DNA of 64,000 nucleotides, from NCBI GenBank assembly GCA_051294375.1, contig CM119263.1, positions 16,967,114 to 17,031,113 on the forward strand, given 5' to 3'. Both the position numbers and the translations under genes were made by a program. This DNA comes from Paraspadella gotoi (Eukaryota > Animalia > Chaetognatha). Under the pieces are notes generated by a model. It was not told the DNA's origin and did not search any database. It saw only the letters and a program-made list of their open reading frames with translations. This document shows, one piece after another, positions 20,564 to 62,112 of this stretch; position 1 is the first letter of the stretch, and every line of letters begins with the position of its first letter.

Positions 20564-20595
<32 letters not shown>

Positions 20596-21062
20596 CCATT
20601 TGCAGCCCATTGCTCTTCCCCCAATTAGATCTTCGTTCTCCTCGCCACCATCGCCGGCGATCGTCCGACCTCTAGAGGCTCGAGTCATTGACGCCGCCGC
20701 AGTCGCCCGCCTGCCCGACACCCGCCGCACGGACTTCCTCTTCTTGTTTTTTTCATTTATATCCTCGTTTCGCCACACCACTCTCAGCCCACGCACCCAA
20801 TCCTTGCGGGCCGAGTTTGTTTAGTTTTTCTCAGATTTGCCGACGTCGCGGACCACAAACATGATCCTCCTCTTTTCCATTCCATCTTTCCAACACCAAC
20901 CAACATCCATTGACTCCCCACTTACATACTTAAGCATTTTCCTCTCCTCGCTCTTTTAACCAGCTGGCCCTTTTTTTTCCCCGCCCGGACACAACCAAAT
21001 CTCTCTCCTTCTCTCCTCTCCCTCTCTCCTCTCTCTCTCTCTATTTTTTTCTCTCTCTATCT

Positions 21063-21142
<80 letters not shown>

Positions 21143-21388
21143 CTCTCTCGTCTCTCTCTCTCTCTCTCTCTTTAAAGCGCCATCTCTCTTTCCACCCACG
21201 GTTGTCGTGTTTTTCCCCAAAATTCGAAGCCGTCGCGTGTTTTCCCGCTCCTCGTCTTTGGCCAAGCTAAAGACATATACGACGACGACGACGACGAGAG
21301 AACAACGAAGACGGACGACGACGTGGTCGAAAACGCATTAACGTTGAAAAGCTAATAAACGCTCTCGTTTCGGCGGCCGTCTCCTCTC

Positions 21389-22498: not shown

Positions 22499-24898
22499 TT
22501 CTTTTTCCATTTCTTTCTTTTCTTCTTTCTCTTCTTCTTCTTCTTTCTTTCTTTTCTCTTCTTCTTCTTTTTCTCTCTTTCTTTCTTTCTTTCTTTCTGT
22601 TCTTTCTTCTTTCTTTCTTTCTCTTTCTTTCTTTCTTTCTTTCTTTCTTTTTTTCTCCCTTTCTTCTTTTTTCTTTCTTCTTCTAATTTTATTCTTTCTC
22701 TTTCCAACTCGCCTCATTTTCTTTTAAACTCTAAATGAGAGCGTATGTTTCTATTGCCGTTCATTGGATGACATATAAAGAAAAGTCTGCTCAGGTAATG
22801 TCTCAAAAAATTCCCTTCATTTCTTTTCTTTCAATTCAATTTATAATATCATTGTCACATATTTTCTTTCTGATCAGTCAAGGTTTATTTTCAGCATTTA
22901 CTTTCTTTTCCCTTCCTTTCCTTTCCTTTCCTGTCCTGTCCTGTCCTCTGTCCTGTCCTGTTCCTTCCTTCCTGTCCTTTCCTTTCTCCTTTCCTTTCCT
23001 TTTTCCTTCCTGTCCTTTCCTTTCCTCTTCCTTTCTTTCCTTTCCTTCCTTCTCTTTTTTCATTTTCTCTATCTTTAATTTATCTTACTATCTAACTCTT
23101 TTTTTTCTCCTCGTCTGTTGTTTTTCTTCCGAATTCCATTTGTTCTTTGTTTTGACTGATGAAGTCAGGAAAGTTAGGAAATGAGGATCAGTTGGCGACC
23201 AGATGCTGTTTCCGCCCCTGCGCCACTTTTTTTTTTCCTATTCAGCGTCCAATATTTAATTATTTATCAACTCCTGTCAATATCTATTAAACCCGCTTCT
23301 GCTTTAGTCTCGGTCGGTTATTCTTAGGTTAGTGGGATTAAGACGTCAAACCAGTTTTACTCGTTCTCAGCTTTGATTCCTCACCACATTCACATTAATT
23401 AATCTTTTATTTCTACTGTAATTTAGTATAAATTCATCACTACGGTTAAATACTCAAATTTATTTATCATATTGATTAGTACCATGTCGACTTTTACAGA
23501 TGTGGTCAAAAAAAAGTTTTAAACTTTGAATCCCCTACTGTCTCACTTGTCTGTTAATTAAACAAAGCTTTTTATAGAGGATGGAGCTCCTGGACACAAA
23601 GCTAAAGCCACTCAAAAATGTGAATGAGGAAAATGAGATAAAGGTGCTCGAAGGTTTGTCCTAGAAATTTGCCTGACTGCAAATCATTGAAAATGTCTGT
23701 GTCAAGGATAAAAAAAAGACATTTGCTGTACCAATGCAACGACAGTCCGACAAAATCTAAAAAAATATAAAATACATTTGGCGGGAGCTGAATCCTTCAT
23801 ATTTGCGCAGCCTCTATGACTCTCTCCCTCATTGCATGGAAGCGGTGTTGAAAACAAATGGTAGTCTGACAATATATTAATTAACTGAATATTAAAATAT
23901 TATTTTCCTTCAAATAGTGAAATAAAATACTTTTATCCTAATTATTAAACTTTTTTGACCACATGTGTATACTACGTAGTACGTTTACGTTACAATTCAA
24001 CTGTTAGTTTAGTTTTAGTTCAAATTTTTAACTTTTTAGAATTCCTGTTTCCGAAAAAAATGGAAAAAATAAATTTCTAGGACAACAAAAAATATAAATG
24101 AGAGAAACAAAAAATTCCTTATTTAAATGAAAAAAAAAGGCAGCAACAGAAGATAGAAAAAAAGTAAACCCAAAAAAGTGAACGAAAAGACGATGCATTC
24201 AAAACTAAACGTACAAAAAAAAACCGGATTTTCATGCTGTTTTGGGTCTAGGGGAGAAACGCGGGTAAACAAGCGAAGTCGTAAAAAGATATTTTTATGA
24301 GTCGACTTCGGTTCTAAGTTAGGGCACGAGCAAAGCGCCGAGAACCGACGCCAATCCGTCCAACGCGCCGTCGAAGGATTGAGCGAGCTAATCGCCGTCG
24401 ATGGGATCTGGTGTCGATCCGCGCCGCCGCATAGAAAAAAGAGAAGACGATATCAGGATTCTTTTACTTAATGTAAGGGTGACGTAGATTCACTTAATTG
24501 CCGTCTACTAAGAATTTTGAGTCGCATCGAGAAACGTAGTAGTTTTCGAGAAGAGATGATGCCCGTTATTACCACATTTCAAAAGATCGTTGTCCAATGT
24601 CTACCAACCAGATTCAAAACTGCTTTGATGCACAAAGGCGCACGACGGTGAGCGATCCTCTTTAGATTCGAGTCTCGGGACTCAACTCCGAAACGTTTGA
24701 CGAATTAAGGCGGTAGGAGGAAGAAAGAAGGAGGAAAAGGGAGGAAGAAATAAAGAAAAGAGAAAAGGGAGGAAGGGGTGAAAGAAGGAAAAGAGAAGGG
24801 GATAGAAATGAGAGTGTCTGATCATCAAGCCGCGCACGTCATAGAGAGAGAGAGAGAGAGAGAGGAGGGGAGGGGAGGAGAGAGAGAGAAGAGAGAGA

Positions 24899-24969
<71 letters not shown>

Positions 24970-26109
24970 CAGAGTAACATTCGGAGGAAAAAAAATTGTG
25001 CATGTTCCAATATTTTAGTATTGGACTCGGAACTACTATTAACCGTTCCGTTCTTTGTCAAACAAATCCCGTAATTTATTTCACAAGAGCTGAGCTTTGC
25101 GGCAAAACTCATTAGGTTATTGAAGGTAAGTCAATCTCCTTTCAAATTCAGACATTGTCTACTCTAAATTATGCGAACCGTTCGAGGAAAAATTTTTTTT
25201 TTTCCCCTTTTTTTCTTCTTTTTCTCGAAAATTTTCCCGGATTGTACGAATTTGCGGAGAAAATGGTTGGAGAGAAGGAAGGGGTATGGTCTGAGGGAGG
25301 AAGAGAAGAAGTGGCAGAAGGACCAAAAGAAAGAAAAGAAGGGAGGAAGTAGAAATGGAAAACAAATGGATGTAGGATGGACAACAATGGTAGAAGGAAA
25401 AATAAAGACGAAAAGGGCGGTGTGGTTGGTGAGAGGAAGAAGGAGAATTTTGAAAAAGATGAGGGAAAGAGAAAAAGGAAATAGAAAGAGATGACTAAAC
25501 GACGCTGATGGCGGAGAATATGGCAAGAAAGGCCGCAGACCCGAAACAGAGGCGGGAAATGGCAAAAAAAAAAACCAAAGTTAGTTTGGCGAAACTGGCG
25601 AAACCGGCGGAAGGACGGGAAAGGGGGAAAAGAAAAACTGAGAACCTGATTTTAGTTTCAACTCACGTATACGACCCCATTCGTCGTCGCGTCGTCTTTG
25701 TCGTCGGAGTCATCGTCTTTTGCAGAGTCGTTCGTCGTCGTCGTCGTCGTTTCTCTTTTCGCCATCATCTTCGTCGTTCGTCTCGTCGTCGTCGTCGTCG
25801 TCGTTCGTCGTCGTCGTCCTCGTCGTCATCTCCGCCACCGTCGCACGTTACGCATTGCCCTCGGTCCCCTCCCCGAAATTCCAGATGTAAACCAAAAGAG
25901 CGAATCTGCCGAGACAGTTGACGACAGCTTGGTTCAGCCTTCCGGGGAGTTGCAAGCATTTATGAGGCAAGTCGTTGTTAGGAACCCTCTCTTAATTAAA
26001 ACAGGAGAGATAAGGAGGTCGTTTTTTAAAACGCTGGGAGACCGACGCAAGTAGATACTGGATGGCATCATTTAAACCTCGCTGAATGGTTCGACTGGTC
26101 TTGATTAGA
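19359..26109 (+). repeat. Copy C of the ~6.6-kb duplicated segment
   Basis: Begins at the same agatcctgtctatac position directly after the gap; indel-rich relative to copy B. Confidence 0.95.
23497..23967 (+). mobile_element. Second copy of the same deleted Tc1 element (inside duplicated segment C)
   Basis: Same TIRs, TA TSD and flanks as 16717-17183, so the same insertion is represented twice. Confidence 0.9.
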
Positions 26110-26425: not shown

Positions 26426-27080
26426 TAAAAAAAGGTTTTCTTTTTTGAAAACTTTCCTTTTTCTTTTCCTCAATACATGAACTAAATTTTAACATTCATA
26501 TTTAATCCCAATCTGTTACCTAACCCAATGTCTATATTTAATCCATAACCCTAATCCTAACTCTATTCCCTAACCCTAATCCTTAATCCTAATCCTTAAC
26601 CCTAATCCTTAACCTTAACCTTTAGCCTAATCTTTAATCTTAAAAGCTAACTTAATTTCTAATTTAAGATGAAATGGACCTTTTTTGGAAAAGAGCATAG
26701 TTCCTAAAGCAACATTTAATAAACGAAGAGCAATGGATGATAGGCAACTAAATAAAAAGACAAGTTACCTTTTTTCTCCTCGTCTTTCTTCATAATTATT
26801 AAAATTTGTAATATCCGCCGCGACCCCCCCCCCCGGCGTTTTTTTTTTGTCTTCCGTCAAATTTTTTCATTTACCCGGTTGAAAAAACACTTTTTGTTTT
26901 CGGATTGAAACTTAATTTCAATTCAATTTTATCGCGCGTCGTTTGTCGAGACAACGCGAAGGAAAAAAAAAAATCACTTACGCTTAAAAACCTTTTTAAT
27001 CTAAAGAGACGAAGCGTTTCGGTTTTGCAATGAGAGCGCTTAAAACACCTGAACTTGTAGTAAGAGCTATCTCGTCGGGG

Positions 27081-27168
<88 letters not shown>

Positions 27169-27767
27169 GTCTATGCGAGAGCAATATACCCAGCGGTGCC
27201 ATGTACGTGATGAGCTTTTGTGTTGATTCAGGAAGGGAGAAACGTTTTATGATATAGGAAAGTGTAAATAAATGGGTTGGGAATTGCAAACGCGCGCCCG
27301 CCTATCAGGAAATCCCCTTTTTTTTGTAGAAAAAGAGAAATAGAGAGCACTATAGAGTTTTTTATGTTTTTAACATTTTTTCTCATTGTTTACAAAGATT
27401 TATGGCATCAGGAACTCACAGTAGAATACTGTTATACTAACTTAGAATGTCATTTATATACACAACATAAGTTCAAATATACTTTAATTAAATCATACGA
27501 TGAATAAATCAAAGTATCTTACTGCATCTATTGTTTCCTCCTCCTCAGCGGCATAAATCATACATTTTTAATTTCGAGAGTGGAAGACGAAGCGGGAGAC
27601 AAAGAGAAAAACTAAGAAAAAAAGAATCAAAAGAAAAAAGAAAGAAATAAAATAAAAGAAAAGAAAAGAAAAGACTTGGGCAACAGTGAAGGAGCAACTA
27701 ATTTTCTTCGTTTCACTAACTACCAAAGAAAGTTTCATAACCTCATCCCGGAAATGATTTATCATCC

Positions 27768-27834
<67 letters not shown>

Positions 27835-28349
27835 CCTCTTCCCTGTTCTTATACTCTTCGGCGCACATTATCTTCGTATTCCCCAGGTAGACAGATTCCC
27901 AACAGGTGCTTTAATTTCCAGTCTCTCTCTTCAGTTTTCTTGGCACAGGAAAAAAATTTGGCTTTTTTCTCATCAATATTTTTTATATAACAAGTCGGAT
28001 AGCCGGATCTAAGTATAACGTTAGTGACTAGTATTTATCTAGTGATTATCAAATGACTTATCGTGACAAATCCTAAGAAAAATACATTACAGCTTTTTTC
28101 TTTTTTATTTTACAATTCTCTTTTTCTTATGATATCCATTTCCAAATGATTAGTGTAAATAAAACTTTGACTATAAGATTCTAAACTCTGCCTGGGCGTA
28201 GCCCTTTTTCCGCCCAGCTTTATACGGGAGAGAAAGATGGGAGGGCGGGAAGAGGGTTGGAGGGAAGGGCGGGAAAAAGATATTCGTAATTCCGGCTTGA
28301 GGAACCTTGAATGTGAAGGCTTCATCCGGTTTTGCCGGAATGAGAAGAA

Positions 28350-28425
<76 letters not shown>

Positions 28426-28695
28426 TCCGAGAAAATCTATTATCTATTCAGCGAATTGGAAAACCAGAAAAAACGTAATGAAACAAACACTGCAAAATGT
28501 ACATTGTACAATGTACATTGTTTCTATGAATTATGAAATTGTAAAAAAAAAAAAAAATTATTGAAGTTGACTACACGTGAAACTAAGGGATTTATTCTGG
28601 TCGGCCTTAGTGCCTACTTTTTTTCCCTCCAGCTAATCGTTCGTCCTCAGAATTCCAACTCTCTTCCTCTTCTCTCTCTCTCCTCTCTCCTCTCT

Positions 28696-28734
<39 letters not shown>

Positions 28735-30098
28735 CTTGTTCATCAAATGTTTCTCATTAAATTCAACGCTGAAAAACAAACCTTATTACTTTTTTTTTCT
28801 TCCTCCCTTTTTTTACTCTTTTAGCCTGAGTTGAGCTTTTCGAAATTTTCTAAATGTTAAAAAGAAAATTAGTAAACCGAAACGAAATTTAACGATATAT
28901 ATATATATATATATATGTACTTGTTAGCTCGAAGATGTTAGATTTAAGATTTAAGATTTAATAAAAAAAAAAAAAAATTTAAGATGATACTTAATCTGAA
29001 ATTTGTTGCGTCCACAATACTTTGAATGTCGTCAATTTTCTTTTCTTAACATCTCAAAAAAGAGAAACTGCACATCACACTGCGGCACCACCTGCCATTG
29101 TCGCACGCGCATCGCAACGCGCGTGCCTCGATCGACTCTCGTCCTTTTTTTTTCGGGTGATTATCATTAAAACGAAACACGCGCGCGCGGTTCAATCAAC
29201 GCGGCTTTTCCGGGAGGAAGCCGCGCCCGCGGCTGCCGTTTGACGAGCGGCGGCTGACGCAGCGTTCGCGGATATTTTATCGGCGGAAGTTTTTACACGG
29301 TTGTCGTCGCGGTTGCTGTAATTGCTGCAGTCGTGCCGCCCCTTAAACGCTTTGTTGACGCTGAGGGCGGGGCACAGTCACTCCTCAGTCGTTAACGACG
29401 ACCGAGTCTCTCGGTTTTTTTCGTGATTGGAAAGAAGAGAAATCGGAGTTTTGGCTTTCGGGTTCGGGAAAAGGATTCGAACTCGGTACCTTTTTGAGCC
29501 ACAGAGGAACGCTCCACGAAAGCGCCACGGATTTTTCGAAGGCAGCAATTTATCGGTTTTAACGACGGAGACGGCGGCGGACGGCGGGCGGCGGGCGGCG
29601 GGCGGCGACCGCAACGGAGTGACTTTTTCGCTACAAACAAACGAAACCAATTAAATCGACGTTGGAGACTTTAAATTTAAAGAGAGACGGAAAAGTTCAA
29701 CCACCGACGCCAACAGACGCTGCCGCCACCCAATTAAACGCTGTCGCAGATATCTAAAATATTTGCGCGTTTGTATGAATATGACCTATTTATACTACCT
29801 TCAACTATACTTAACTATTTGTACGTTTATCAAACATACTCATTATTATTCTTCGCTATCAGATGGAATTGTCTGGATCATTAAAAAAAATATCATCGGC
29901 GCGGCATTGAAGAGGCGTCGCTCGAGCATTTCCGAGGTATCGACGTTGACAAAGGATTTCGCATCGCTATCGACGTCATTTTATCTGCGTTCGGCGTCAG
30001 AAAAACCGAGTTCGGTTGTCAATATTTTTCAACTCTTATCTACGGAGCAGAATCCTCATAAAAGCCCCATTAATGCGGATGCGGTGGCGGTGGCGGTA
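26426..30098 (+). repeat. ~3.7-kb segment duplicated at 32868-36641
   Basis: Collinear match with the post-gap sequence; the copies diverge after gcggtggcggTA. Confidence 0.93.
26460..26700. repeat. Dispersed repeat with a degenerate (CCTAAC/CCCTAA)n core, possibly a Helentron/HINE-like non-autonomous element
   Basis: Shares flanks tgaa..aattttaacat..atatttaatc..aatct and aatttaa..tgaaatg..tttt.gaaaagag with 41640-41967. Confidence 0.5.
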
Positions 30099-30449
30099 CA
30101 GCGGTGCCTCAGACTCCAGGAAAAAATTTCAAAATCGAGTGAAAAAAGGTCATGGGGTGGCGGGGGTGTATTGGAGGTCATCGATTTCGATTTTGATAGG
30201 TTAACTGATAAGTAGATGGTTCTTGGGGTGGGGCTTCTGATCAGAAAAGATCGCTAAACCGTAACCTATCTTTCTTTCTTTGACTTTTCTTTACTCCTCT
30301 AAAATAAAATATATTCTATCCTATTTCGAAGATTCATATTGGCCAACCTTGCGGCATTTCCTTCATGACTATGGTGTTAATTGCATAAAATGATACGGCG
30401 TCGAAAGCTGATTGTCTTCCCCTTGGAATAATGTCAGAGGCATAAGGAA

Positions 30450-31400
30450 AATGTTATTTTTTCCAACCAACGTATAAAAGTATCATAATTTTTCTTTAAC
30501 TACTTCATGTATTTACAATTGAAAAATATTTTAAGCAAAAACATTTTTTTTACTTTATGTCACCCGTTTAACCAGGTTTATCACTGCTGATAATATCACT
30601 TATAGATTTTATTCAGATAAAGGAGTTTACTTAGTCCTGTGGTCTGATGCGATTCATGCGATTTTAAAATTAAGAGAGAATTTGATTTTCAATCTGGTAT
30701 TCAACTAAGAACATTTCGCGCAAAATATATAGGAAATTACTATTTTCCAAGAATTTAAAAATTTTTCTTGCAGTTATCGTTTAAACAGGTTTATTAATAT
30801 TAACAATTGATAATAGTTTTATTAGTTATAATTCGGTTTGGCTCATTAATGGTCTGTTGCGGTTTTTTGCGGTTTTTGAGTTTTAGGAAAGAAATATACC
30901 TACCAGTTACATGTCAATCAATCGAAAAATAACAAAGAAGAACTAGTTTTCAGATTTTCTTTTCCGACTGATCTTCTTATATTCGTTTATCAGGTTTTAT
31001 CTGAACTGAATATCATTGTCAGTTGAAACAGGTAGCATAAGGTTCTAGTAATAATGGTTAAATGCGATTTTAGCGTTTTGGTATGTAAAGAGAGAAATAA
31101 GGCTTGTACCAATGAACTTCCCCAATATCCAAGAATAGACAAAGAAGAACTAGGGATTTAAATTGCCTCTGTACATCTTTTATTTTTGACGAATTCGTTT
31201 ACAAAGGTTTTTGGTAAAAAAGAAATATATTCATGTTTAAAAGCTGGACTGAGATTACAGTGATTTAGGGTTAAGTGATTTTCGTTAATTTTCAAGTTTT
31301 AATGGAGAAGAGAGCTCATCCAGTAACCCCATCAGACCCCCGAGATTATCAAGGTTTGATAAACTTGTTTTATAATTTCACTGTTTGGGCGATATTTGCT
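30450..31400. repeat. Degenerate ~210-bp tandem array (at least 4 units), likely transposon-internal
   Basis: cgttta..aggttt anchors at 30565, 30778, 30984 and 31196 (spacing 213/206/212); caaagaagaactag at 30933 and 31140. Confidence 0.75.
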
Positions 31401-31507
31401 TGTCTTGTTATCTTGTCTTTGTCTAATATATATCCTTGTACGTCATTTAATGCAATAAATACCATCAATCATTGAATCAATTAAACTGAATAAAAACTTA
31501 TATTCAT

Positions 31508-31544
<37 letters not shown>

Positions 31545-32269
31545 AGAGAGGCAACGAGACCGGACGAGAACGACGACAAAGAATCGACGACAAACCGAGT
31601 CGATGGACCTGACCGATCTGACCGGACCAAAGTTCGCCTCTCTCCTCTTTGCCGGTTTCTATTCTCCCGCCTTTTTCCTTTTCCCCTTCCCCAAGAAAAA
31701 AACGGTGTGAGAATTTGAGAACAGAATATCGATACAAAACGATTAGTATTTATTACAATATAAGGATCATCGACACGGGTTCATTTTCCGATGGCAAGAA
31801 GCCCTTCTTCTCATTGGTCGTCCGATGGTGATTCGTCCAATGAGAGAATCCTGGCAAATCTATCCGAGTCGCGGATACCATTCCATCTTTGGTTCGATTC
31901 CACCCTTCGAATGCTCTCATAGTTTCTCTTAGGAAAACTCAGACAGACCAACTTCAAGTCACTTTGACACTATTCCTTACGATTTTCTCTGGAATATCAC
32001 TATTTTCCTACGACTTTTACCGGACCGCCGTTATTTTTATTTCGGAGATTTTTTGTATGATTTTTGCTGGATTTCTGTTGATTTCGCTGGATTTTCGTCT
32101 GATTTACATCTTTTTATTACCATTTGATTTAACATTTCTACATTCGACCTTTAATTATTTGGTTTGCTTTTGAGAGATCGTTCGGGAGTCCTTGTCATGA
32201 TGCAGTTGAGACCTCCCTCACGAGACAGCCATTCCTACCTGCGACGCGGGAGAGCAAGTTCTCTACAGA

Positions 32270-32302
<33 letters not shown>

Positions 32303-32447
32303 GAAAAAGAAGAAGAAGAGAGATATAAAAATACGTATAATAACACGCAAATTAATTAATAAAAACAACGAGCTCTTTTTCCCCTTTTTCATTTTCCCTT
32401 CTTTAATTATGCAATCGAGATATGAGGAAACACAACCACTGACCATG

Positions 32448-32842
32448 TAAGGCGTAGTAAATTTCTAAATTTAACTTTAATTAAAATTCTAAAAGTGCAG
32501 GAACGAAAACATTATATTAAATGAACATTTATGTAATAAAAAATTTTATAAATAATTTTACAATTTACGCAGTAGGCCATATTTAATACTAGTACTAAAT
32601 CCAATAAATGTTAAAATTTCAAAACAGTTTTTTTCTAAATTTTTTTTGCGGATTGGATTCTCATAAAAAGTTGATATAAAAGAAATATAACTCTTTTGAA
32701 AAATTCCTTCATTAAGTGGGTCAAAAAATTAGAAAAAGCTATATTTTTTAAGCTGAAAATTAATTTTTTATACTATTAAATATAGATTTTTTTTTCAATT
32801 TTTAACCCACTTAATGAAAGATTTTTAAAAATGATTCTATTT
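32448..32842. mobile_element. Second copy of the fold-back MITE, truncated by a gap
   Basis: Starts taaggcgtagtaaatttc and is collinear with 55233-~55605, but has a different left flank, so it is an independent insertion. Confidence 0.85.
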
Positions 32843-32867
32843 NNNNNNNNNNNNNNNNNNNNNNNNN

Positions 32868-33556
32868 TTAAAAAAAGGTTTTCTTTTTGAAAACTTCCTT
32901 TTCTTTTCTCAATACATGAACTAAATTTTAACATTCATATTTAATCCCAATCTGTTACCTAACCCATGTCTATATTTAATCCAAACCCTAACCTAACTCT
33001 ATTCCCTAACCCTAATCCTTAATCTAATCCTTAACCCCTAATCCTTAACCTTAACCTTTAGCCTAATCTTTAATCTTAAAAGCTAACTTAATTTCTAATT
33101 TAAGATGAAATGCGACCTTTTTTGGAAAAGAGCATAGTTCCTAAAGCAACATTTAATAAACGAAGAGCAATGGATGATAGGCAACTAAATAAAAAGACAA
33201 GTTACCTTTTTTTCTCCTCGTCTTTCTCATAATTATTAAAATTTGTAATATCCGCCGCGACCCCCCCCCCGGCGTTTTTTTTTTGTCTTCCGTCAAATTT
33301 TTTCATTTACCCGGTTTTGAGAAAAAACACTTTTTTGTTTTCGGATTGAAACTTAATTTCAATTCAATTTTATCGCGCGTCGTTTGTCGAGACAACCCGA
33401 AGGAAAAAAAAAAATCACTTACGCTTAAAAACCTTTTTAATCTAAAGAGACGAAGCGTTTCGGTTGCAATGAGAGCGCTTAAAACACCTGAACTTGTAGT
33501 AGAGCTATCTCGTCGGGGGGAGAGAGAGAGAGAGAGAGAGGAAGAGAGAGAGTAGA

Positions 33557-33596
<40 letters not shown>

Positions 33597-34211
33597 AGAG
33601 AGTCAGAGTCTATGCGAGAGCAATATACCCAGCGGTGCCATTACGTGATGAGCTTTGTGTTTGATTCAGGAAGGGAGAAACGTTTTATGATATAGGAAAG
33701 TGTAAATAAATGGGTTTGGGAATTGCAAACGCGGCCCACCGCCTATCAGGAAATCCCTTTTTTTTGTAGAAAAAGAGAAATAGAGAGCACATAGAGTTTT
33801 TTATGTTTTAACATTTTTTTCTCATTGTTTACAAAAGATTTTATGGCATCAGGAACTCACAGTAGAATACTGTATACTAACTTCGAATGTCATTTATATA
33901 CACAACATAAGTTCAAATTACTTTAATTAAATCATACGATGAATAAATCAAAGTATCTTACTGCATCTATTGTTTCCTCCTCCTCAGCGGCATAATCATT
34001 ACATTTTTAATTCGAGAGTGGAAGACGAACGGGAGACAAAGAGAAAACTAAGAAAAAAAGAATCAAAAGAAAAAGAAAGAATAAAAATAAAAAAAAAAAA
34101 AGAAAAAAGACTTGGGCAACAGTGATGAAGGAAAGCAACTAATTTTCTTCGTTTCACTAACTACCAAAGAAAGTTTCATAACCTCATCCCGGAAATGATT
34201 TATCATCCTCA

Positions 34212-34288
<77 letters not shown>

Positions 34289-34808
34289 CCCTCTCCCTGT
34301 CTTTATACTCTTCGGCGCACATTATCTTCGTATTCCCCAGGTAGACAGATTCCAACAGGTGCTTATAATTCCAGTCTCTCTCTTCAGTTTTCTTGGCACA
34401 GGAAAAAATTTGGCTTTTTTCTCATCAATAATTTTTATATTAACAAGGTCGGATAGCCGGATCTAAGTATAACGTTAGTGACTAGTATTTATCTAGTGAT
34501 TATCAAATGACTTATCGTGACAAATCCTAAGAAAAATACATTACAGCTTTTTCTTTTTTTATTTTACAATTCTCTTTTTCTTATGATATCCATTTCCAAA
34601 TGATTAGTGTAAATAAAACTTTGACTATAAGATTCTAAACTCTGCCTGGGCAGTAGCCCTTTTCCGCCCAGCTTTATACGCGGAGGGAGAGAAAGATGGG
34701 AGGGCGGGAAGAGGGTGGAGGGAAGGCGGGGAAAAAGCATATTCGTAATTCCGGCTTGAGGAACCTTGAAGTGTGAAGCTTCATCCGGTTTTGCCGGAAT
34801 GAGAAGAA

Positions 34809-34892
<84 letters not shown>

Positions 34893-35165
34893 CTTTCTCT
34901 TCTCTCTCTCTTCTTTTCCTCTCTCTCTCTCGGATCCGAGAAAATCTATTATCTATTCAGCGAATTGGAAAACCAGAAAAAACGTAATTGAAACAAACAC
35001 TGCAAAATGTACATTGTACAAAGTACATTGTTTCTATGAATTATGAAATTGTAAAAAAAAAAAAAATTATTTGAAGTTGACTACACGTGAAACTAAGGAT
35101 TTATTCTGCGTCCGGCCTTAGTGCCTACTTTTCCCTCAGCTAATCGTTCGTCCTCAGAATTCCAA

Positions 35166-35262
<97 letters not shown>

Positions 35263-36641
35263 CTTGTTCATCAAATGTTTCTCATTAAATTCAACGGCTG
35301 AAAAACAAACCTTATTACTTTTTTTTTCTTCCTCCTTTTTTTACCTTTTAGCCTGAGTTGAGCTTTTCGAAATTTTCTAAATGTTAAAAAGAAAATTAGT
35401 TAAACCGAACGAAATTTAACGATATTATATATATATATATATATGTACTTGTTAGCTCGAAGATGTTAGGATTTAAGATTTAAGATTTAATAAAAAAAAA
35501 AAAAATTTAAAGATGATACTTAATCTGAAATTTGTTGCGTCCACAATACTTTGAATGTCGTCAATTTCTTTTCTTAACATCTCAAAAAAGAGAAACTGCA
35601 CATCACACTGCGGCACCACCTGCCATTGTCGCACGCGCATCGCAACGCGCGTGCCTCGATCGACTCTCGTCCTTTTTTTTTCGGCGGTGATTATCATAAA
35701 ACGAAACACCGCGCGCGCGGTTCAATCAACGCGGCTTTTCCGGGAGGAAGCCGCGCCCGCGGCTGCCGTTTGACGAGCGGCGGTGACGCAGCGTTCGCGA
35801 TATTTATCGGCGGAAGTTTTTACACGGTTGTATCGTCGCGGTTGCTGTAATTGCTGCAGTCGTGCCGCCCTTAAACGCTTTGTTGACGCTGAGGGCGGGG
35901 CACAGTCACTCCTCAGTCGTTAACGACGACCGAGTCTCTCGGTTTTCTTTCGTGATTGGAAAGAAGGAGAAATCGGAGTTTTGGCTTCGGGTTCGGGAAA
36001 AGGATTCGAATCGGTACCTTTTTTGAAGCCACAGAGGAAACGCTCCACGAAAGCGCCACGGATTTTTCGGAAGGCAGCAATTTATCGGTTTTAACGACGG
36101 AGACGGCGGCGGACGGCGGGGCGGCGGGGCGCGGCGGGCGGCGACCGCAACGAGTGACTTTTTCGCTACAAACAAACGAAACCAATTAAATCGATCGTTG
36201 GAGACTTTAAATTTAAAGAGAGACGGAAAAAGTTTTCAACCACCGACGCCAACAGACAGCTGTCCGCCACCCAATTAAACGCTGTCGCAGATATATCTAA
36301 AATAATATTGCGCGTTTGTATGAATATGACCTATTTATACTACCTTCAACTATACTTTAACTATTGTACGTTTTATCAAACATACTCATTATTATTCTTC
36401 GCTATCAGATGGAATTGTCTGGATCATTAAAAAAAAATATCATCGGCGCGGCATTGAAGAGGCGTCGCTCGAGCATTTTCGAGGTATGCGACGTTGACAA
36501 AGGATTTCGCATCGCTATCGACGTCATTTTACTGGTTCGGCTCAGAAAAACCGAGTTCGGTTGTCAATATTTTTCAATCTTATCTACGGAGCAGAATCCT
36601 CATAAAAGCCCATTAATGCGGATGCGGTGGCGGTGGCGGTA
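32868..36641 (+). repeat. Post-gap copy of 26426-30098
   Basis: Starts right after the 25-N gap at 32843-32867; differences are mostly indels. Confidence 0.93.
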
Positions 36642-41639: not shown

Positions 41640-41967
41640 CCATTTTTGTTCCTATTCTCTGAATTTAATTTTAACATAAATATTTAATCGTAATCTATAC
41701 TATACCAAACCCTAATACCTAACCCTTACTTTTATCTCTAACTTAATCCTTAACCCAAAATCTATAAATGTATTTTTCAACTATGAACACTTATTTCTTC
41801 CTAATTTTAATGCTTAATTAAATCGTTAACCCAAACCCTAACCTATACTCTAAACCAAATACTTAACCTAACTATACTAATTTAATCTAATCTAATCTAA
41901 TATTTAAATTTAAAAAATTATTTAAATCTCAATTTAAACTGAAATGTGGTAATTTTGAAAAAGAGGT
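41640..41967. repeat. Diverged second member of the CCTAAC-core dispersed repeat
   Basis: aaccctaatacctaaccc..aaccctaacc core with the same flanking motifs as 26460-26700. Confidence 0.5.
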
Positions 41968-42720
41968 GGAGACGATAAAGTTACCAGCATTGACCGATTT
42001 GTGACCTCACGAGTCACGAATATGCTTTAAAACGCGCATCTTCCATGGCGTCTTCAATTCCCAACGATCGATAAATTGACTGACTGACTGAAACATTTTT
42101 CCTCCAAACCTCCAAACATTTGTCTCTTTAACGGATGCGTCGCCGCTCGCAATTGGGGGATAAGTTGCCCCGTGAATTATGTGAGAGGTGAATTTCTCCC
42201 GAGTAAAGTTGGGAAACGCGGGCGAAAAGGTGAAGAGTTTTATGAATTATAGCTGGAATGAGGGGGGCGGTTTGGAAAAAAAAAAAAAGAGGTGAGAGAC
42301 GATAAAGTTACCAGCATTGACCGATTTGTGACCTACGAGTCACGAATATGCTTTAAAACGCGCATCTTCCATGGCGTCTTCAATCCCAACGATCGATAAA
42401 TTGACTGACTGACTGAAACATTTTTCCTCCAAACCTCCAAACATTTGTCTCTTTAACGGATGCGTCGCCGCTCGCAATGGGGATAAGTTGCCCCGTGAAT
42501 TATGTGAAGAGGTGAATTTCTTCCCGAGTAAAGTTGGGAAACGCGGGCGAAAAGGTGAAAGTTTTATGAATTATAGCTGGAATAGGGGGGCGGTTTGGGG
42601 GGGAGTGATAAAGACGAGGATGTCACGTGGTTCGACCGATGAATCNNNNNNNNNNNNNNNNNNNNNNNNNGGAGTGGAGTGATAAAGACGAGGATGTCAC
42701 GTGGGTTCGACCGATGAATC
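41958..42720 (+). repeat. ~320-bp tandem duplication plus a 45-bp overlap across the gap at 42646-42670
   Basis: 41958-42275 matches 42284-42598; 42602-42645 matches 42676-42720. Confidence 0.9.
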
Positions 42721-43755
42721 GGCGGGAAAAGAGAAGGTTAAAAGGAAAATGGGAGGAAGAGAAGAAAAGGTGAAAGGAAGAGAGTGAAAGGTCGAGAAAG
42801 GAAGATAAAAGGCGAGATCTATCATCGCTTCCTCGGCGAGAAAGGAAGAGGAAGAATTAAAAGGATGGTCGGAATGTGAGATTAAAAAGGAGAAAATGTG
42901 AAAGAGAAAGAGAAGAGGATCTCTGAAATTAGGGAAGAGGCGAAATAAGGATCGAGAAAGCCCGGAGTCAAGTTTGATCGAATCAATACAAGAATAAACC
43001 ATTCAATATTCAAGATATTGATAGCAAAAAGTAGCAAAAATTAAATAATTTTAAAAATGCATTCATCCAAAAAAGGGGGTCAGAGCATGAACGCGGAGTG
43101 ACATATTATGAATTATGCGAGAGAGAAGCCAAGTCACATTTTTAAGGAGGTTGAAACAATTCACGTTCATTCCATCCTCGAACGGAATCCATCAGTTTTC
43201 ACCGAAATGAAAAATAGTATAAATCTAGAGTTAATCTAAAACAATTTTGACTTTTATCGTTTCTTTTTATTCGAAAAAAAAAATATTCGGAAGAGTAAAA
43301 TTTCAGAGAATAAAAAAAAAAACCCCACTCGTTCTCACCTTTAGGATTCTCCCAAATAGAGCCTCACTCACTTTTTTTCCCTTAATTTAGTCACGCAAGT
43401 TTCTTCCCCTCGCTAAGTTCGTATAATTTGGTCATTTCTCTTCATCCTTTTTTTTTTTCCTTCTCATTCCTCAACCGCTAAAATATCACATTCAAGGACT
43501 GGATTTCATTCTCATTTTTGTCTTTCCTTTCTACTCATCTCTATCCTCTATTTCTATTCGAACTTTCTTTCTTCTTCCTTTCTTTTCCTCTCATCCCTTT
43601 CTCCATCCTCCTTAATTGTTCTCTCCCCCCCCCCCCCGCCCCCCTCAATCGCCCTGAGGGATAGGCCCGAAACAAGAAAATCCAGGGCGAAGAAAAATCA
43701 AAAGAAAAAACTGAAAAATCAAAGCAAATCTTAATCTCAATCTTGTCTCTTCTCT

Positions 43756-43801
<46 letters not shown>

Positions 43802-45315
43802 CCCTCTCTCTTCTCGTTGAAATGATTTATAATTTTTTGCCTTTAAATTTTTTCTGAGAGGATGCCTGCCGCCTTTTTTTTATTCTTTTATGTTGTGTGC
43901 GAGGAGAAAGAGAGAGAGGAGAGGGGGGAGGGCGGATAACGACATTTTCTTGCAAATATGGTGGAAATAAAAGATATGCAAAAAAGTTGATTGTGATTTA
44001 TTGAATATTTTTTTCATTGTTTCTTAAGGTTAGAATTCAAAATATCCCCACTCCCCTCTCTAGAATCTACATAATAATAGGAAATCGCGGTCGGATCAAG
44101 CGACGTACACGGAACAAAATATCTCAGCCCTCAACGACGCGGAGTTGCAGAAAGCCGGGATAAACCGTACGATCAGAGAGTAACGAAAAGCCACATACAA
44201 TAAATCACATGCCTCTGAAATTAAAACAGTTTGTTTATTTGTAGAATATTCAATGTAACAAGGGACATCATTAATCGTCTCTAGGCGGGAAAAGAGAAGG
44301 TTAAAAGGAAAAATGGGAGGAAGAGAAGAAAAGGTGAAAGGAAGAGAGTGAAAGGTCGAGAAAGGAAGATAAAAGGCGAGTCTATCATCGCTTCCTTCGG
44401 CGAGAAAGGAAGAGGGAAGAATTAAAAGGATGGTCGGAATGTGAGATTAAAAAGGGAGAAAAGTGAAAGAGAAAGAGAAGAGGATCTCTGAAATTAGGGA
44501 AGAGGCGAAATAAGGATCGAGAAAGCCCGGGAGTCAAGTTTGATCGAATCAATACAAGAATAAACCATTCAATATTCAAGATATTGATAGCAAAAGTAGC
44601 AAAAATTAAATAATTTTAAAAATGCATTCATCCAAAAAAGGGGGTCAGAGCATGAACGGCGGAGTGACATATTATGAATTATGCGAGAGAGAAGCCAAGT
44701 CACATTTTTAAGGAGGTGAAACAATTCACGTTTCATTCCATCCTCGAACGGAATCCATCAGTTTTCCACGAAATGAAAAATAGTATAATTCTAGAGTTAA
44801 TCTAAAACAATTTTGACTTTTATCGTTCTCTTTTTATTCGAAAAAAAAATATTCGGAAGTAAAATTTCAGAGAGATAAAAAAAAAACCCCACTCGTTCTC
44901 ACCTTTTTAGGATTCTCCAAATAGAGCCTCACTCACTTTTTTTTCCCTTAATTTAGTCACGCAAGTTTCTTCCCCTCGCTAAGTTCGTATAATTTGGTCA
45001 TTTCTCTTCATCCTTTTTTTTTTCCTTCTCATTCCTCAACCGTAAAATATCACATTCAAGGACTGGATTTCATTCTCATTTTTTGTCTTTCCTTTTCTAC
45101 TCATCTCTATCCTCTATTTCTATTCGAACTTTCTTTCTTCTTTCCTTTCTTTTCCTCTCATCCCTTTCTCCATCCTCCTTAATTTCGTTCTCGTCCGGCG
45201 CGCCACCCGCGCCCCTCAATCGCCCTGAGGGATAGGCCGAAACAGAAAATCCAGGGCGGAAGAAAAATCAAAAGAAAACTGAAAAATCAAAGCAAATCTT
45301 AGTCTCAATCTTGCC

Positions 45316-45363
<48 letters not shown>

Positions 45364-45646
45364 CTCTCCTCTCTCTCTCTCTCTCTGTTGAAATGATTTA
45401 TAATTTTTTGCCTTTAAATTTTTTTCTGAGAGGATGCCTGCCGCTTTTTTTTATTCTTTTATGTGTGTGCGAGAGAAAGAGAGAGAGAGAGGGGGGAGGC
45501 GGATAACGACATTTTCTTGCAAATATGGTGGAAATAAAAGATATGCAAAAAAGTTGATTGGATTTATTGAATATTTTTTTCATTGTTTCGTTAAGGTTAG
45601 AATTTCAAAGATTCCCCACTCCCCTCTCTAGAATCTACATAATAAT
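42721..45646 (+). repeat. 1.36-kb direct repeat pair (42721-44077, 44284-45646) separated by a ~205-bp unique spacer
   Basis: Both copies run from ggcgggaaaagagaagg to ctctagaatctacataataat, with indel-type differences. Confidence 0.92.
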
Positions 45647-48061: not shown

Positions 48062-48382
48062 ATTTCAAATTGGCAAACCGAGAAAAAAAAATCAAAAAGG
48101 GTGATTTTCTGCTCGACGCTGTAAACTGTTGCTGAAAGCTGTGGTCGTCGTCGTCGTCGTCGTCGTCGTCTTTGTTTCGCCTGTTCTTGCCCCAAGTCTT
48201 GATCGTCATCGTAAAAAAAAGTTAGGTCATACCCTCCCCATCAAAAAACGCATTTAAATCTGGTTCCATGTTGACTGACGCAAACCTCAATAAAACCCTC
48301 GCTGCGTTAAACGCAAAACGAAAACCAGAAAAAATGAGGGAAAAGTGAGAAACTAGTAAAAGGAAAAAAAAAGGAAAATACT

Positions 48383-48627
48383 GTGGCGGTGTATTCACAC
48401 GTCCACAATCAGTCAGCCAAATCGATTGGCTAAGAAGTGGAACACACCATCCCAGGCTTAGTGTTCCATCCACAGTCCTAACAACTTCCCTCTGAATTGG
48501 CAAAGCGAGCCCGTCCTAGGGTAACCGCGCCAGTGACTGGAGGCGTCACTGAGGGTCGGAAGCCCCCAAAGCCAACAGTGAGATGCCCCATCCCAAGGGG
48601 TATCACAGGCAACCCGGCTGTTGCAAT
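48383..48627 (+). mobile_element. 245-bp hairpin-rich insertion with candidate 6-bp TSD (AATACT); retrozyme/SINE-like
   Basis: AATACT at 48377-82 and 48628-33. The block is GC-rich within A-rich flanks. Hairpins: TGTGG/CCACA, AGCCAA/TTGGCT, TGGAACAC/GTGTTCCA, CAGTGAC/GTCACTG, GATGCCCC/GGGGTATC, GCAAC/GTTGC. Confidence 0.6.
48497..48575 (+). ncRNA. Twister-ribozyme-like motif, type-P5 permutation (possibly degenerate)
   Basis: UUGGC-AAA-GCGA-GC-CCGU-CCUAGG-G-UAA-CCGC-GC-[CAGUGAC/GUCACUG]-AGGG-UCGG-AA-GC-CCCC-AAA-GCCAA follows the twister order P5, P2', G, T1', P1, UAA, P2, T2, P3, P4, T1, AA, T2', P4', P5'. Confidence 0.62.
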
Positions 48628-50448
48628 AATACTTTTAAATTATACTCAGTTTTACTCACTGCAAGGCAAATGTGAACAAGGAAAATCTTTTAAAAATATT
48701 GAGAGTTAAAAAAGGGTTGAAAAAAATTTACAGATTTGAAAAACAATTTTAAAGAAAAAAAAATTTCGATACTTCGTCGCAGGCGTCGCTGCGTAAACGG
48801 CCTGACATCCGCCAACGTCATTTCCGCACACCTCGTTGTTGTTGTTGTTGTCATGAAGCGGAAAGCGAAGACTTCACCAGATAATTTTTTTTATTTACTC
48901 CACCGCGTTTCCTTCCACTATCGGCGCTTCAGTCGCTCGCTGCTCAAACCCGGAAGAATTTCGACATTTACGGCGCGAATTTCGCCGCCGGCGCCGATTT
49001 CCGCATTTGGATTTATTCCCGGCGTCCTATCCGGCCTCATTTCCGGCGTCTTTTTTCCGGCCTCCTTTTTTTTGGCGCTATTTCCGGCGATATACATCCG
49101 TTGGCAGCGGCGAGCGGCGCCAACGTCACTTCCCGTCTCGCGACGCCGAATGTCCGACGTTGATGGGAGGGCGACGCCGTCGGGAAAAGGTGGCGCGGAT
49201 GGCGCGCTTATTTGTCGACCGACGTCAAAAAAGTCAGGAGGGAAAAAGACGGCAGGAGGTGGGGTGGGAGAATGGTACGAGGAATGTGGGTGGCGAGTGT
49301 GAAACCTTTCAGAAAAAAGCGGGCGCCAAAGGGAGAGGCTGGTTAAGACGTTGCCAATGAGAAAAGCTCACTCTCGTGACGTGAGTGTGAGGAGTGATAA
49401 TGGTCATTGGTCAAGGGCCCTGGACGTTGCCAAGATCAAGAAGAAGAAGGTTTGATGAGTCATGCCGAAAATCCTTTCGCCGTCCCGATCTCCCGGTGGG
49501 CGTGGCAGAGGAAATAGGGTCAATGAAAAAGGGGAGGAAACTTCCGGTTTGGGTCATCAAAGCAGCGGGAGGGAGATTCGACCAGAGTTTGGAGAGGGAG
49601 GTGAGAGGTCGCGGAGAGAACAGTAACAGAATCCATAGATTGACGGGGATATTTATTTCCCCGCGACTGAACAAGATTAAGACTAAAGATGTAAGTGCAA
49701 TCAATTTGGGCGAACGACCTGGTATAATTTGTTATGCATACGTTCGATGTGAATTAAGTATCAAGGAACACCGACGTGAGTGGCTGCCAATGAAAGTCGT
49801 TTCTTTCACTGTCTTACGAAATATCCGATCGTTTCCATATTTCTCGCGGCAGTCGCGAGGGTCGTTGACATTTCAGCCAGTCGGAAAAAGCATAAATGAC
49901 GTAATAAAGTCATGAAAAAAAATATCAGGCAAAAAGAGCTATCGCCCCGTCTTTAATCTGCATTATATAAATACTTAAAAAGAGGCGCCTCTAAAAAAAA
50001 AGGATTCTTCGGTGCCCCAAACTTCCGGCAGATGGAAGCGTTTAACCTTTCGCCGTCCGATATCTTCGACTATCATTGCCCGCTCTCTGGCACCCGCCGC
50101 CGTCAATCAGTGGGTCATCGCCGCCATAAAACTCGGGACGATTGCTCTTTTGTTGAGTTTGTTGGAGGAGGAAGAGGGAAGATGAGGAAGAAGGATTTCG
50201 AAGGAAAAAGGAAATCATGAAGAGTTCTCTGCTCGAATCTTGTGTTCATGGGAAAGTTTAATTACAATTATTTCCCTATCAGTAGAAAAGGATAAGAAAA
50301 TGAAAAAAAGGATTTTTGGCCCGATAAACCTATCTCTGTCTCATTGAAAGTTACATTTACGGTATCTTATATTTATTTAAATTATAATTATAATTATTTT
50401 TATAGTTATAATTATTATTTTTAACACTTTTTTTCCCCCTCTTTTCTT

Positions 50449-57066: not shown

Positions 57067-59412
<2,346 letters not shown>

Positions 59413-59437
59413 NNNNNNNNNNNNNNNNNNNNNNNNN

Positions 59438-62112
59438 GATGAGCGACATGCAGGGATTCAGATAGTGGAAGAACCCTGACTTATTAAACCAACGCATTGT
59501 ACATATTTGCTTAAGAATTGGTGTGAGCGGACTGCAGCTGTGTTTTAAAAATAGTGCCAGGTGTGACCAAAGCGTGATCCGAAGAAAGAATCGGCAGACG
59601 TCGACTTCCCGACACAGAAATATTGCGCGAGGAAAAATGTGCCTAAAAGGCGATCAGGAAGGGACCCCAAGGAAGCGAGGGAGGCGGACCGCCGCGAACA
59701 AAACTACGTCATTCCACAAGGTGCAAGGAAAGAACGAGAGAGGAGAGGATGGAGATGAGGAGACAGCAGAGAGAGAGGGACGAGAGAGAGAGGAGGAGAG
59801 AGAGAGAGAGAGAGAAAACAGAGAGAGGCAGAAAAGAGAGAGCAGAGAGACGAGAGATGATAGTAGGGGCGGAGTGGGGAAACGAGTGCATCGTGGCGCA
59901 CGAGACATCGAAGATTTGATGGAAGCGGTTCTTGACAAATGAGCGATTGGGGGACCAATAGCCAGTGTTGCATTACGAAAGGACAGGCTGAAAACAATGG
60001 GAATTTGATGATAGAGAAAATTGCCCACGGTCCTGAAATATTTTCAAACATACTCAGGGCGAATAAACCTAAACAAGTTTCCCACAGTTTTAAAAGATTT
60101 AATAAAATATCGCTTAAAAAATCTTCTAAACATCTTTTGTTTACTGTAAAATAATTATACCATGGATACATTGATACAACGTCTGTAACAAAAACCAAAA
60201 TTCAAAAAAACATCGTAAAAGATGTTCACCATGGGAAAAGTAAAGATAATCCAAACAATAGAACACAAAGGTGGAACCTGAAAAAGCCATTAAAGAAAAA
60301 TTGCATAAACGTGGAGCCACGGAGAATTCTATAGATAAAGACACATACAATGCGCGTTAAATGGAATTGGGGCTGAGCAAAGAGAGTTAATTGAATGCGA
60401 AATGGAATGGATAGACGCTGGACTGAAAGTCAGCGTGTTAGAAAAATGCGGTTTGGGTTTAAAGTGCGCGGCCAAGTGAGCCTTTGCAACGGTGAGGGAT
60501 GGCGCAGGGAAGTCTTTCGTATTGTTGCGGAAGTATGAAAGAGTCGCGCTGATGAATTCAAGTATTTTGCGCGTTTGTCACGCGCAGATGCTTTGGCCCA
60601 CTACGCGCGCCCGTCCGTCTCTACAATATGAGAAAAAAATTAGCCGTGCGCAGGGAGTTTAACTTTATGAACTTTGAAATTACAATGGCAACGTAAGCCG
60701 GCAGGAATGAGGAGGGAAAAATGTAAAGGACGCTTCGTTGTCAGGTGCGAGCATCGTTGCTGCTCAGGCTGTCAGAGGGAGAGGGAAACGGTTCTTCTTG
60801 CGACCGAGATTAAGACCCAGGAATGCGGCGCCGAACGCGGGCGACAAGACGCAACTGACATGTTAAGAAAGCAAGTCGCCAACAGAAAGGAAAAGCAATC
60901 GGGCGCCAGCTGCGGAAAAGGTAAGCAAAAGGCGCGAACAGTGCATGACACATTGAACATTGCTGCACAAGCAAGAAATAGAAGCTGGACACAAGACGCC
61001 CAACAAAAAAGATGTGAAAAAAAGGCGCATAGAGAAAGGTAAGCAGAAGGGCCAACTGGAAAAGCTCGGCGACTGCAGCGACTGTTCGCTCCTCTTCAAA
61101 TTTCTTGGCCCGGAGCAAAGACAGTATGGGACTTTTTGAAAAATTGGACTCGAATTTCGGAAAATAAGGTTTTGTTCCATCCGGAGAAGCTAATTAAATG
61201 CGGCGACAAATAAATAGGGAAGGGTAGCGATCCGTCGGCTTCTGAAGAGCGGCTGATAATGCGACGGCAAACATTGTGATAGGCAAAGCCGAGAGTATGT
61301 GATAGCGAAAGCGAGGTCGTGGTAATGAAAGCAGAGGTTGAGCAGGACTATGATACGACATGGTAGTCTACGTATTCAACGCTCCTGAGAGAGAAAGACT
61401 TGAATTTGCGAAGTTTGAGCAATCCCGCGCCGCGACGACGGGAAAACGACGACGCACGACGACAAAGAACGAACGAAAGATAAGACAACGACCGATCGAC
61501 GACGACAAATTGATGTTGAGGCAAATGAAAACGACGCGCACGTCAACCGAATTGTTTTGCGACGGTAATCGAACGACGTTGACGACGAAAGCTGACAACT
61601 ACGAAGTCGAAAGAACGAAAAAATATGATTGAGCAATTACGACTATCCTGGTTAGATTGTTGCAGGGTTGGATGAGCATAATAATCATATGGCATAATGA
61701 GAGATAGCGCAGACAAGGAGAATTAAGGGAGGAGAAGACGCATAAAATTCCGGATCACATCTTCAGTTGGCGATTTTGCATGACGCCCTTGATTGCCCCT
61801 GATTGCCGAGCGACGACTAACAAATATGACCAATCCTCCAGCATGAAATTGAGGCGGCGAAAACGACAAAGCCCGAATGAAATGAGAAGACCGACGAACT
61901 AAGGCGAACATTACGCAGACGACATAAACAGAAGTCGGAGGGGCGAGCCGGCGAGCGGAGCGCAGTCTCTTCTTTCCGTCCGGCTCGATGGGGCAACCGC
62001 TCGTTCTCGTGGGGCGGAACGTGCGTTGCTCCGCCGTAGAATGCGGAAGGATGAATGAGACCGCGAGCGCTTCGATTCGTTCCATCATTAAACTGGTATT
62101 CTTCTTCGTCGC
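59438..62112 (+). repeat. Very noisy, insertion-rich copy of 57067-59412 (looks like an unpolished long read)
   Basis: About 330 bp longer than the first copy through scattered single-base insertions; starts at the 25-N gap. Confidence 0.9.

Follow-up and report, generated by a model that had tools for sequence, protein, structure and literature searches.

A divergent type-P5 twister-like motif inside a high-copy repeat of about 245 bp in the chaetognath Paraspadella gotoi

Does the genome of the chaetognath Paraspadella gotoi contain a type-P5 twister ribozyme and, if it does, what kind of element carries it? The question is raised by positions 48497-48575 of a 64,000-nucleotide (nt) stretch of contig CM119263.1, here called the window, in which the original prediction had recognised a twister-like core from the letters alone. 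To our knowledge, twister ribozymes are almost without an assigned biological role. In this study, we found that the motif sits inside a dispersed high-copy repeat of about 245 base pairs (bp), which that prediction had not seen. The window copy of the repeat occupies 48383-48627, with a firm 3′ limit and an approximate 5′ limit, and it lies, like every feature of the repeat described below, on the + strand. What is said here of published work refers to the accessible parts of the cited articles and files.

A twister-like layout inside a high-copy repeat

The repeat family was described from contigs of 4 of 10 public runs, aligned to 48250-48850 at 80% likeness; the tallies are position-wise and include variants of at least 2% only, and copies were not read individually. 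Summed contig depth rose to 1.6-1.8 million over 48439-48627 against 80-220 in the flanks. This ratio of 8,000-19,000 is in itself no copy number, and we estimate the family to be of the order of ten thousand copies. The ends were taken from 25 listed records (there are 10,170 further ones), 21 of which are other copies of the family, some representing one locus in more than one run; records of 82-87% identity also exist. For 14 of these 21, by our reading of the table, homology stops on the 3′ side and unrelated sequence follows, always at 48619-48638. The 3′ flanks of the copies were AT-rich and mutually dissimilar. A 5′ limit with at least 20 unlike letters beyond it was found in 11 listed records, at 48397-48486 and in none at the predicted cut site. 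These 5′ limits may be due to divergence and not to truncation, because the loose letters before 48463 are still homologous, with one compensatory change in a hairpin. Neither a second copy nor a tandem arrangement of the repeat was found in the 64-kb window, and the single copy was placed at 48383-48627 because of a 5′ hairpin and a candidate 6-bp duplication at its borders.

A direct sequence check located every piece that the original prediction had named, and the block order of a type-P5 twister, with the ends in P5, was confirmed when the layout was mapped on Table 1 of PMC8501958, on PMC5408937 and on the Rfam Twister-P5 consensus. P5 has 5 bp (48497-48501/48571-48575), to which the family majority adds a sixth pair, 48496-48576. 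P2′ (48505-48508) is followed by the catalytic-type G48509, by position 48510, which is A in the family and C in the window copy, and by T1′ (48511-48513). The triplet UAA at 48522-24 holds the cleavage site proposed from the twister consensus, U48522|A48523, which our mapping supports as a prediction; P2 (48525-28) and the T2 dinucleotide GC (48529-30) come next, and this whole run is free of family variants of at least 2%. P3 (48531-48551) is a 7-bp hairpin with family variation in its loop and at 48545, and P4 with its loop L4 (48552-48567) contains U48556, T1 (48557-59), A48560, A48561 and T2′ (48562-63). Both the catalytic G after P2′ and the N-A-A triplet of twisters are present (G48509 and U48522-A48523-A48524), and T2 is complete (2/2, 48529-30 with 48562-63). 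The pairing proposed for T1 also exists, but its count of 3/4 has to be corrected to 3/3 (48511-13 with 48557-59), because T1 consists of three Watson-Crick pairs with an A.A pair as the fourth element, and the U of the loop has its partner A within L4 (PMC5408937). The A.A pair that caps T1 is absent from the window copy, which has C48510, and present in the family majority.

The layout has three imperfections. P2 comprises three Watson-Crick pairs and an A48508.C48525 mismatch, so that a four-pair P2 is lacking family-wide. P4 (48552-55/48564-67) comprises three G-C pairs and A48552.C48567; its G-C and U.A closure is canonical and only the outer pair is off, a pair that is closed by the variant T at 48567 found in 1.8-4.3% of depth. 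Finally, the P1 stem of a type-P5 twister is missing. As had been noted from the letters, the region of P1 (48514-48521) can form at most 2 bp in the monomer and holds a 6-nt palindrome (48515-20); its pairing probability is 0.0 in nested folding, and its position 48518 is variable in 2-3% of family depth. Compared with the Rfam family RF02684 (clan CL00120), the repeat family has the same order P2′-GA-T1′-P1-UAA-P2-GC-P4-L4-P4′, the same ends in P5, two complementary pseudoknots and the catalytic G and A. However, in the RF02684 model P1 is 8 bp long, P3 is absent and P2 and P4 are perfect, whereas the family has a palindrome for P1, a 7-bp P3 and A.C mismatches in P2 and P4.

Chance, covariance models and predicted cleavage

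Both strands of the window were searched with a twister descriptor in which P2 and P4 could each contain one mismatch and the letter following the catalytic G was free, and a single match was obtained. Any match appeared in 11 of 2,965 block-wise dinucleotide shuffles, and in 1 of 2,965 when P3 and P5 of at least 4 bp were demanded; the descriptor was composed after the motif had been seen, and these figures are therefore optimistic. The motif is present, and its origin by chance is unlikely.

Covariance models are less favourable to a twister, and their results stand at the head of the evidence against the reading developed below. No significant support came from the Rfam models or from a model of our own built on phage sequences. 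No Rfam family matched the window at its gathering score, and RF02684 (gathering score 37.6 bits) was not among the matches over the motif even at relaxed thresholds. The best Rfam family over the motif was twister-P1, with 15-16 bits and an E value of 0.25-6.3 depending on the stretch; it was also the top family over the element among 4,227 Rfam families. Phage type-P5 controls scored 43-63 bits with Rfam Twister-P5. Our own model, made from 44 phage type-P5 cores, gave the motif 6.5 bits (E 5.8) and placed it first of 2 matches in the window. The part matched by it and by Rfam twister-P1 was P4/L4. Taken together, the layout is convincing and the covariance-model scores are unconvincing, and we class the family as a variant outside RF02684, because the Rfam score falls short and the four-pair P2 and the P1 stem are lacking.

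The window copy is not typical of its family, from whose majority it departs at 10 of 197 positions. Position 48510 is A in 99.5% (X1), 98.4% (X2) and 99.4% (X9) of depth in three data sets and in the sole contig of a further one (X10), which makes the GC-for-GA defect private to the window copy. The suggestion that this copy is decayed and that the family consensus restores GA is therefore supported; the two A.C mismatches, which had been listed as deviations of this copy, are family-wide and no sign of its decay. Besides 48510, 7 of the 10 private letters weaken a Watson-Crick pair of the majority and one gains a pair (partners assigned by eye). Six of the 10 private letters are contained in contigs that match the window exactly (48250-48468 and 48571-48850), but among the records listed no contig spans 48510 with the window letter, so that C48510 lacks independent confirmation. 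Because the window is a scaffold with gaps, in which near-duplicate blocks adjoin several runs of N, the letter at 48510 could also be an assembly error. The near-duplicate blocks (10697-21388, 26426-36641, 41958-45646 and 57067-62112) are 83-97% identical, mostly lie beside 25-N gaps, and are likely to be scaffolding artefacts or uncollapsed haplotypes.

If C48510 is real, the window copy is predicted to be probably inactive, because the equivalent change in the rice twister, A46C, leaves 9% activity (relative activity 0.09, and 0.05 together with G44A; PMC5113685); the equivalent A is one of four rice positions at which every change gives less than 0.20 (PMC5113685). On the other hand, the window copy may not be fully dead: in a survey of natural twisters, activity after an A-to-C change at one or other A of the A.A pair did not, on average, differ significantly from that of controls.

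For the family, the balance of evidence suggests a ribozyme that would cleave in an attenuated manner, perhaps acting as a dimer. In the family majority no catalytic or pseudoknot letter is altered, and none of them varies at the 2% level. Cleavage does not require P1 (PMC5408937), imperfections of P2 and P4 are tolerated in natural twisters, and the rice twister tolerates the same P2 mismatch when it stands alone (G44A, 0.97; PMC5113685). The mutant G48509A, which had been proposed as a control, would be a weak one, as the equivalent rice mutant keeps 0.52 (PMC5113685); the rice equivalents of an A-to-U change at +1 and of a G-to-C change at the catalytic G keep 0.07 and 0.06. Covariation of T1 and P2 inside the family, proposed as a test, was not visible, there being no variant of at least 2% in these elements. 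T1 is free to vary among the 91 distinct phage type-P5 cores that passed a pairing filter, in which it is formed by 15 different complementary pairs; the T1 pair of the family is not among these 15 types.

Several further observations belong with the covariance-model scores. In the rice twister, G44A gave 0.75 and 0.25 when combined with two P4 changes and 0.08-0.79 when combined with three changes at one P1 position (PMC5113685). The pairing filter removed all 33 phage pattern matches whose first P2 pair is C.A, whereas it was passed by 13 of 38 with C-G and by 33 of 118 with U-A at this pair. In nested folding, a competing helix about 9 kcal/mol better replaces P2 and P4; this was so for the window copy even with three private letters held unpaired, pseudoknots being uncounted. 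Natural controls kept P2 in 16 of 22 cases and P4 in 19 of 22 under nested folding. The core is also not significantly more conserved than the rest of the repeat, with minority variants at 1 of 34 core positions and 15 of 163 others (p 0.32). An argument for selection from CpG decay was dropped in view of this comparison and of a window that is not CpG-depleted (observed/expected 1.24). A two-state switch through a 6-mer repeated at 48531 and 48576 was likewise rejected, being dominant only with the private letters and falling to 0.03-0.04 when these were held unpaired.

The motif of the family had no match in metagenome and viral contigs, and the element had none in plasmids and phages. A looser pattern gave 22 loci in viral contigs, where 0 of 20 scanned had an Rfam match and 1 of 22 had 3/4 pairs in P2 together with 2/3 in P4. 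In half of the metagenome collection it gave 119 loci, 11 of them partially paired and 0 similar to the element by BLAST.

A proposed retrozyme-like cycle and its alternatives

A parallel to the motif was seen in Naiads, which are Penelope-like elements. We inspected the last ~300 nt of 53 of 54 Naiad consensus entries (PMC8557442, File S5) by eye, with no program score, and found a type-P5 twister-like layout in 7 of the 53 3′ ends. The layout is canonical in Naiad_Mley and 1_Movir, while the bivalve elements Mgal, Bpla, Mphi, Scon and Mmer have variants with palindromes instead of P1. Naiad_Bpla and the family majority have in common a 9-nt run of junction, P2′ and GA, then T1′, one U and a 6-nt palindrome. 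The idea that a palindromic P1 might favour dimers, voiced in the original prediction, may thereby gain a parallel in five bivalve elements. Several other Naiad 3′ ends (nematodes, ostracod) appeared by eye to have hammerhead-like cores instead of a twister, which suggests a change of ribozyme class within the Naiad clade. Naiads were reported to have a high copy number, AT-rich sites and no hammerhead (Craig et al. 2021; PMC8557442), and the word twister has 0 occurrences in that article.

Given these observations, we assign a probability of about one in two to the reading that the repeat is a non-autonomous retroelement with a divergent type-P5 twister, the RNA of which is copied by a Penelope-like, probably Naiad-type, partner in a retrozyme-like cycle. 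In such a cycle, the RNA would cut itself at U48522|A48523 with G48509 as general base and A48523 as general acid, leaving a 2′,3′-cyclic phosphate and a 5′-OH, as known twisters do. A single unit would cut slowly, owing to the palindrome in P1, the two family-wide A.C mismatches and the competing helix, and two units paired via the palindrome would cut better. Unit-length RNA would arise mainly from rare tandem master copies and would be re-ligated or circularised by a host ligase. A Naiad-type reverse transcriptase would copy it from a fixed start near 48628, which would yield scattered monomers with both sides of the cut site, and monomers such as the window copy would be dead ends that decay. 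In Perere-3 of Schistosoma mansoni the cut determines the 5′ end of the insertion; here it does not, since sequence from either side of the cut site is retained in the copies and no listed copy begins there. That none of the 11 listed 5′ limits falls at this site indicates that the 3′ cleavage product does not serve as template. The RNA that is copied must accordingly be uncut, re-ligated or circular.

The difficulties of this cycle lie in its partner and in its masters. No reverse transcriptase or GIY-YIG frame was found among the 145 of 758 window frames that were scanned with Pfam. Naiads are 3.4-4.4 kb long and have both domains, whereas the repeat is of ~245 bp and no coding partner was seen in the window. 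Naiads also form partial-tandem pseudo-long terminal repeats (pLTRs) with 5′ truncation; the window repeat is a monomer, and the 5′ limits of the listed copies may, as said above, reflect divergence. Six short motifs of the element were compared with the Naiad consensus file; four were absent and two occurred in unrelated context, as judged from 3 of 7 occurrences, and the five motifs taken from the core or the 3′ end were counted as having no Naiad match. No tandem junction was present among the 15 joints listed of 16, which weakens the retrozyme-like model that we favour, although tandem joints could be hidden because the 5′ part of the window copy is atypical.

Non-LTR retrozymes are, like the present family, short (170-400 nt), highly self-paired, non-coding, high-copy, ribozyme-bearing animal repeats (PMC7229834; bioRxiv 10.64898/2026.07.22.740005). 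They are reported to derive from the pLTRs of Penelope-like elements and to be often monomers (PMC7229834; bioRxiv 10.64898/2026.07.22.740005), and weak hammerheads of the axolotl cleave as dimers (PMC7229834). However, non-LTR retrozymes carry a type I hammerhead and are defined by tandem arrays and circular RNA, whereas the window repeat has a twister and is a monomer. None of the runs listed as containing the family is recorded as RNA, although X9 and X10 may be of this kind. Twisters in animal retroelements are known already (type P1; PMC8501958), their role in the literature surveyed being the processing of RTE 5′ ends by type-P1 variants (PMC8501958), and twisters in the 5′ ends of animal RTE elements are also mentioned in PMC7761336. 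The Perere-3 (RTE) variants resemble the present family in being twisters in an animal retrotransposon with a weak P1, but they are of type P1 and their cut defines the 5′ end of the insertion, in contrast to a type-P5 motif with an internal cut site at which no copy among the records listed starts (PMC8501958). The window family is a type-P5 variant in a short repeat. In our literature search, no report of a type-P5 twister was found for short animal repeats or for Penelope-like elements; most subscription papers, the lists of Roth et al. 2014 and the supplements of PMC11662667 lay outside its coverage, and the latter two may hold animal examples.

A bolder form of the same reading is offered tentatively, and we consider it doubtful. 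The repeat would be a twister-based counterpart of the hammerhead retrozymes, that is, a self-cleaving, circularising RNA parasite of Naiads of ~245 nt and ~ten thousand copies, with a palindromic type-P5 twister that fires as a dimer. If this were true, dimer firing would be a mode not described for twisters, and the twister would have taken the place of the hammerhead among Naiads. The result bears on a point left open by Craig et al. 2021 (PMC8557442), namely that Naiads amplify strongly without hammerheads. That ~ten thousand internal type-P5 twister repeats are missed by standard models suggests that eukaryotic twisters are under-counted. The family is in addition a ready test set, with one master sequence, natural single mutants and a prediction of monomer versus dimer cleavage.

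Four other explanations have to be weighed. The first, which we regard as unlikely, is that there is no separate short element: the copies would stem from the 3′ end, pLTR or tail, of an autonomous Naiad-type element, mostly with 5′ truncation, and the twister would play the part that the hammerhead plays in other Penelope-like elements. Depth drops ~300-fold from 48460 to 48397 and, farther upstream, to the single-copy level, which is steeper than gradual truncation would give, although divergence of the 5′ part of the window copy could mimic such a drop; the scanned frames of the window, as stated above, hold neither of the two Naiad domains.

A rather improbable explanation is that the repeat is a polymerase III short interspersed element (SINE) mobilised by an ordinary long interspersed element, in which an internal ribozyme frees units from multimeric transcripts as in the Schistosoma hammerhead SINE. 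That SINE (PMC6765202) is the precedent and, like the family, is a short repeat with a self-cleaving ribozyme in its interior and perhaps a polymerase III promoter, but it carries a hammerhead where the family carries a twister, and the promoter of the family is a weak pattern match. Motifs resembling an A box (48427-37) and, with one mismatch, a B box (48463-71) precede the cut site and fit this explanation, as do a T run just past the 3′ end and the candidate 6-bp target-site duplication (left 48377-48382, right 48628-48633). The latter is the longest match between the two 40-nt boundary regions and may be due to chance, because it is short and AT-rich. The box spacing is short, the boxes start ~45 nt inside the apparent 5′ end, no homology of the repeat to transfer RNA (ARAGORN, Rfam), 5S or 7SL RNA (Rfam) was found, and the twister resembles those of Naiad ends. 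Short pieces of the repeat may resemble 5S rRNA, but Rfam gave no 5S match at E 10.

Improbable as well, and in our view a little more so, is a twister that is vestigial family-wide, having been inherited, being inactive in the master copies and being retained only because the copies are young. The mismatches of P2 and P4, the near absence of P1, the competing fold, the presence of both sides of the cut site in the copies and a core no more conserved than its surroundings would all be expected of such a relic. An inactive relic is harder to reconcile with the intact catalytic and pseudoknot letters of the majority and with a T1 that is complementary at 3/3 and unlike the common T1 types, and ~94% of the natural twisters tested, all of type P1, were active despite imperfections (PMC11662667). 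Finally, a chance resemblance within a structured, GC-rich repeat would agree with the covariance-model scores and with a descriptor made after the event, but it is barely credible in view of the shuffles, of the top rank of twister-P1 over the element, and of a family majority that independently supplies the missing conserved A and the sixth P5 pair.

Other features of the repeat and of the window

The whole unit folds better than 199 of 200 shuffles (z -3.3). A 5′ terminal hairpin is predicted at 48383-48406, with an end pair probability of 0.96; few other copies match this part at 80%, the depth in X1 being 3,701 at 48397-417. A helix of 48410-48414 with 48616-48620 that would join the ends appears in the minimum-free-energy and centroid structures and is a prediction only. 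The 5′ structured domain (48432-48494) comprises a helix (48432-38/48488-94), a hairpin (48439-67) and a small hairpin (48474-86). At five sites of this domain where the window copy has a mismatch, the majority letters form Watson-Crick pairs (partners by eye), and in a minor subfamily the pair 48444/48462 is changed from A-U to G-C (loose-end consensus, X1 and X2). A 3′ hairpin lies at 48582-48604, and its loop repeats an 8-nt motif from the loop 48447-54; the identical copies (48447-48454 and 48588-48595) are 141 nt apart and may be a candidate protein-binding signal. An origin of the repeat from a long terminal repeat is not favoured, neither a terminal dinucleotide pattern nor a fixed 5′ end being seen. 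In X10, which represents a second organism, a 276-nt contig contains 48439-48629 at 95% identity and carries majority letters; it may come from a close relative, shared material or contamination.

No Rfam match to a hammerhead was found in the window. The sole Pfam match above the curated cut-off among the scanned frames was a Tc1-type DDE_3 transposase remnant, which contains an in-frame stop (16777-17090, + strand), inside a block that is duplicated at ~22532-26109. Short internal repeats at 3450-3960 give threonine-rich frames on the + strand, without a Pfam match in the scanned frames. Among the phage sequences, contigs L224, L279, L406, L210, L221 and L376 have 2-5 matches each to the type-P5 twister pattern, ~300-600 bp apart. 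At the phage loci L029, L031, L037, L041, L056, L063 and L074, a second GA-T1′ motif lies upstream of a type-P1 twister, so that both permutations can be drawn on a single stretch.
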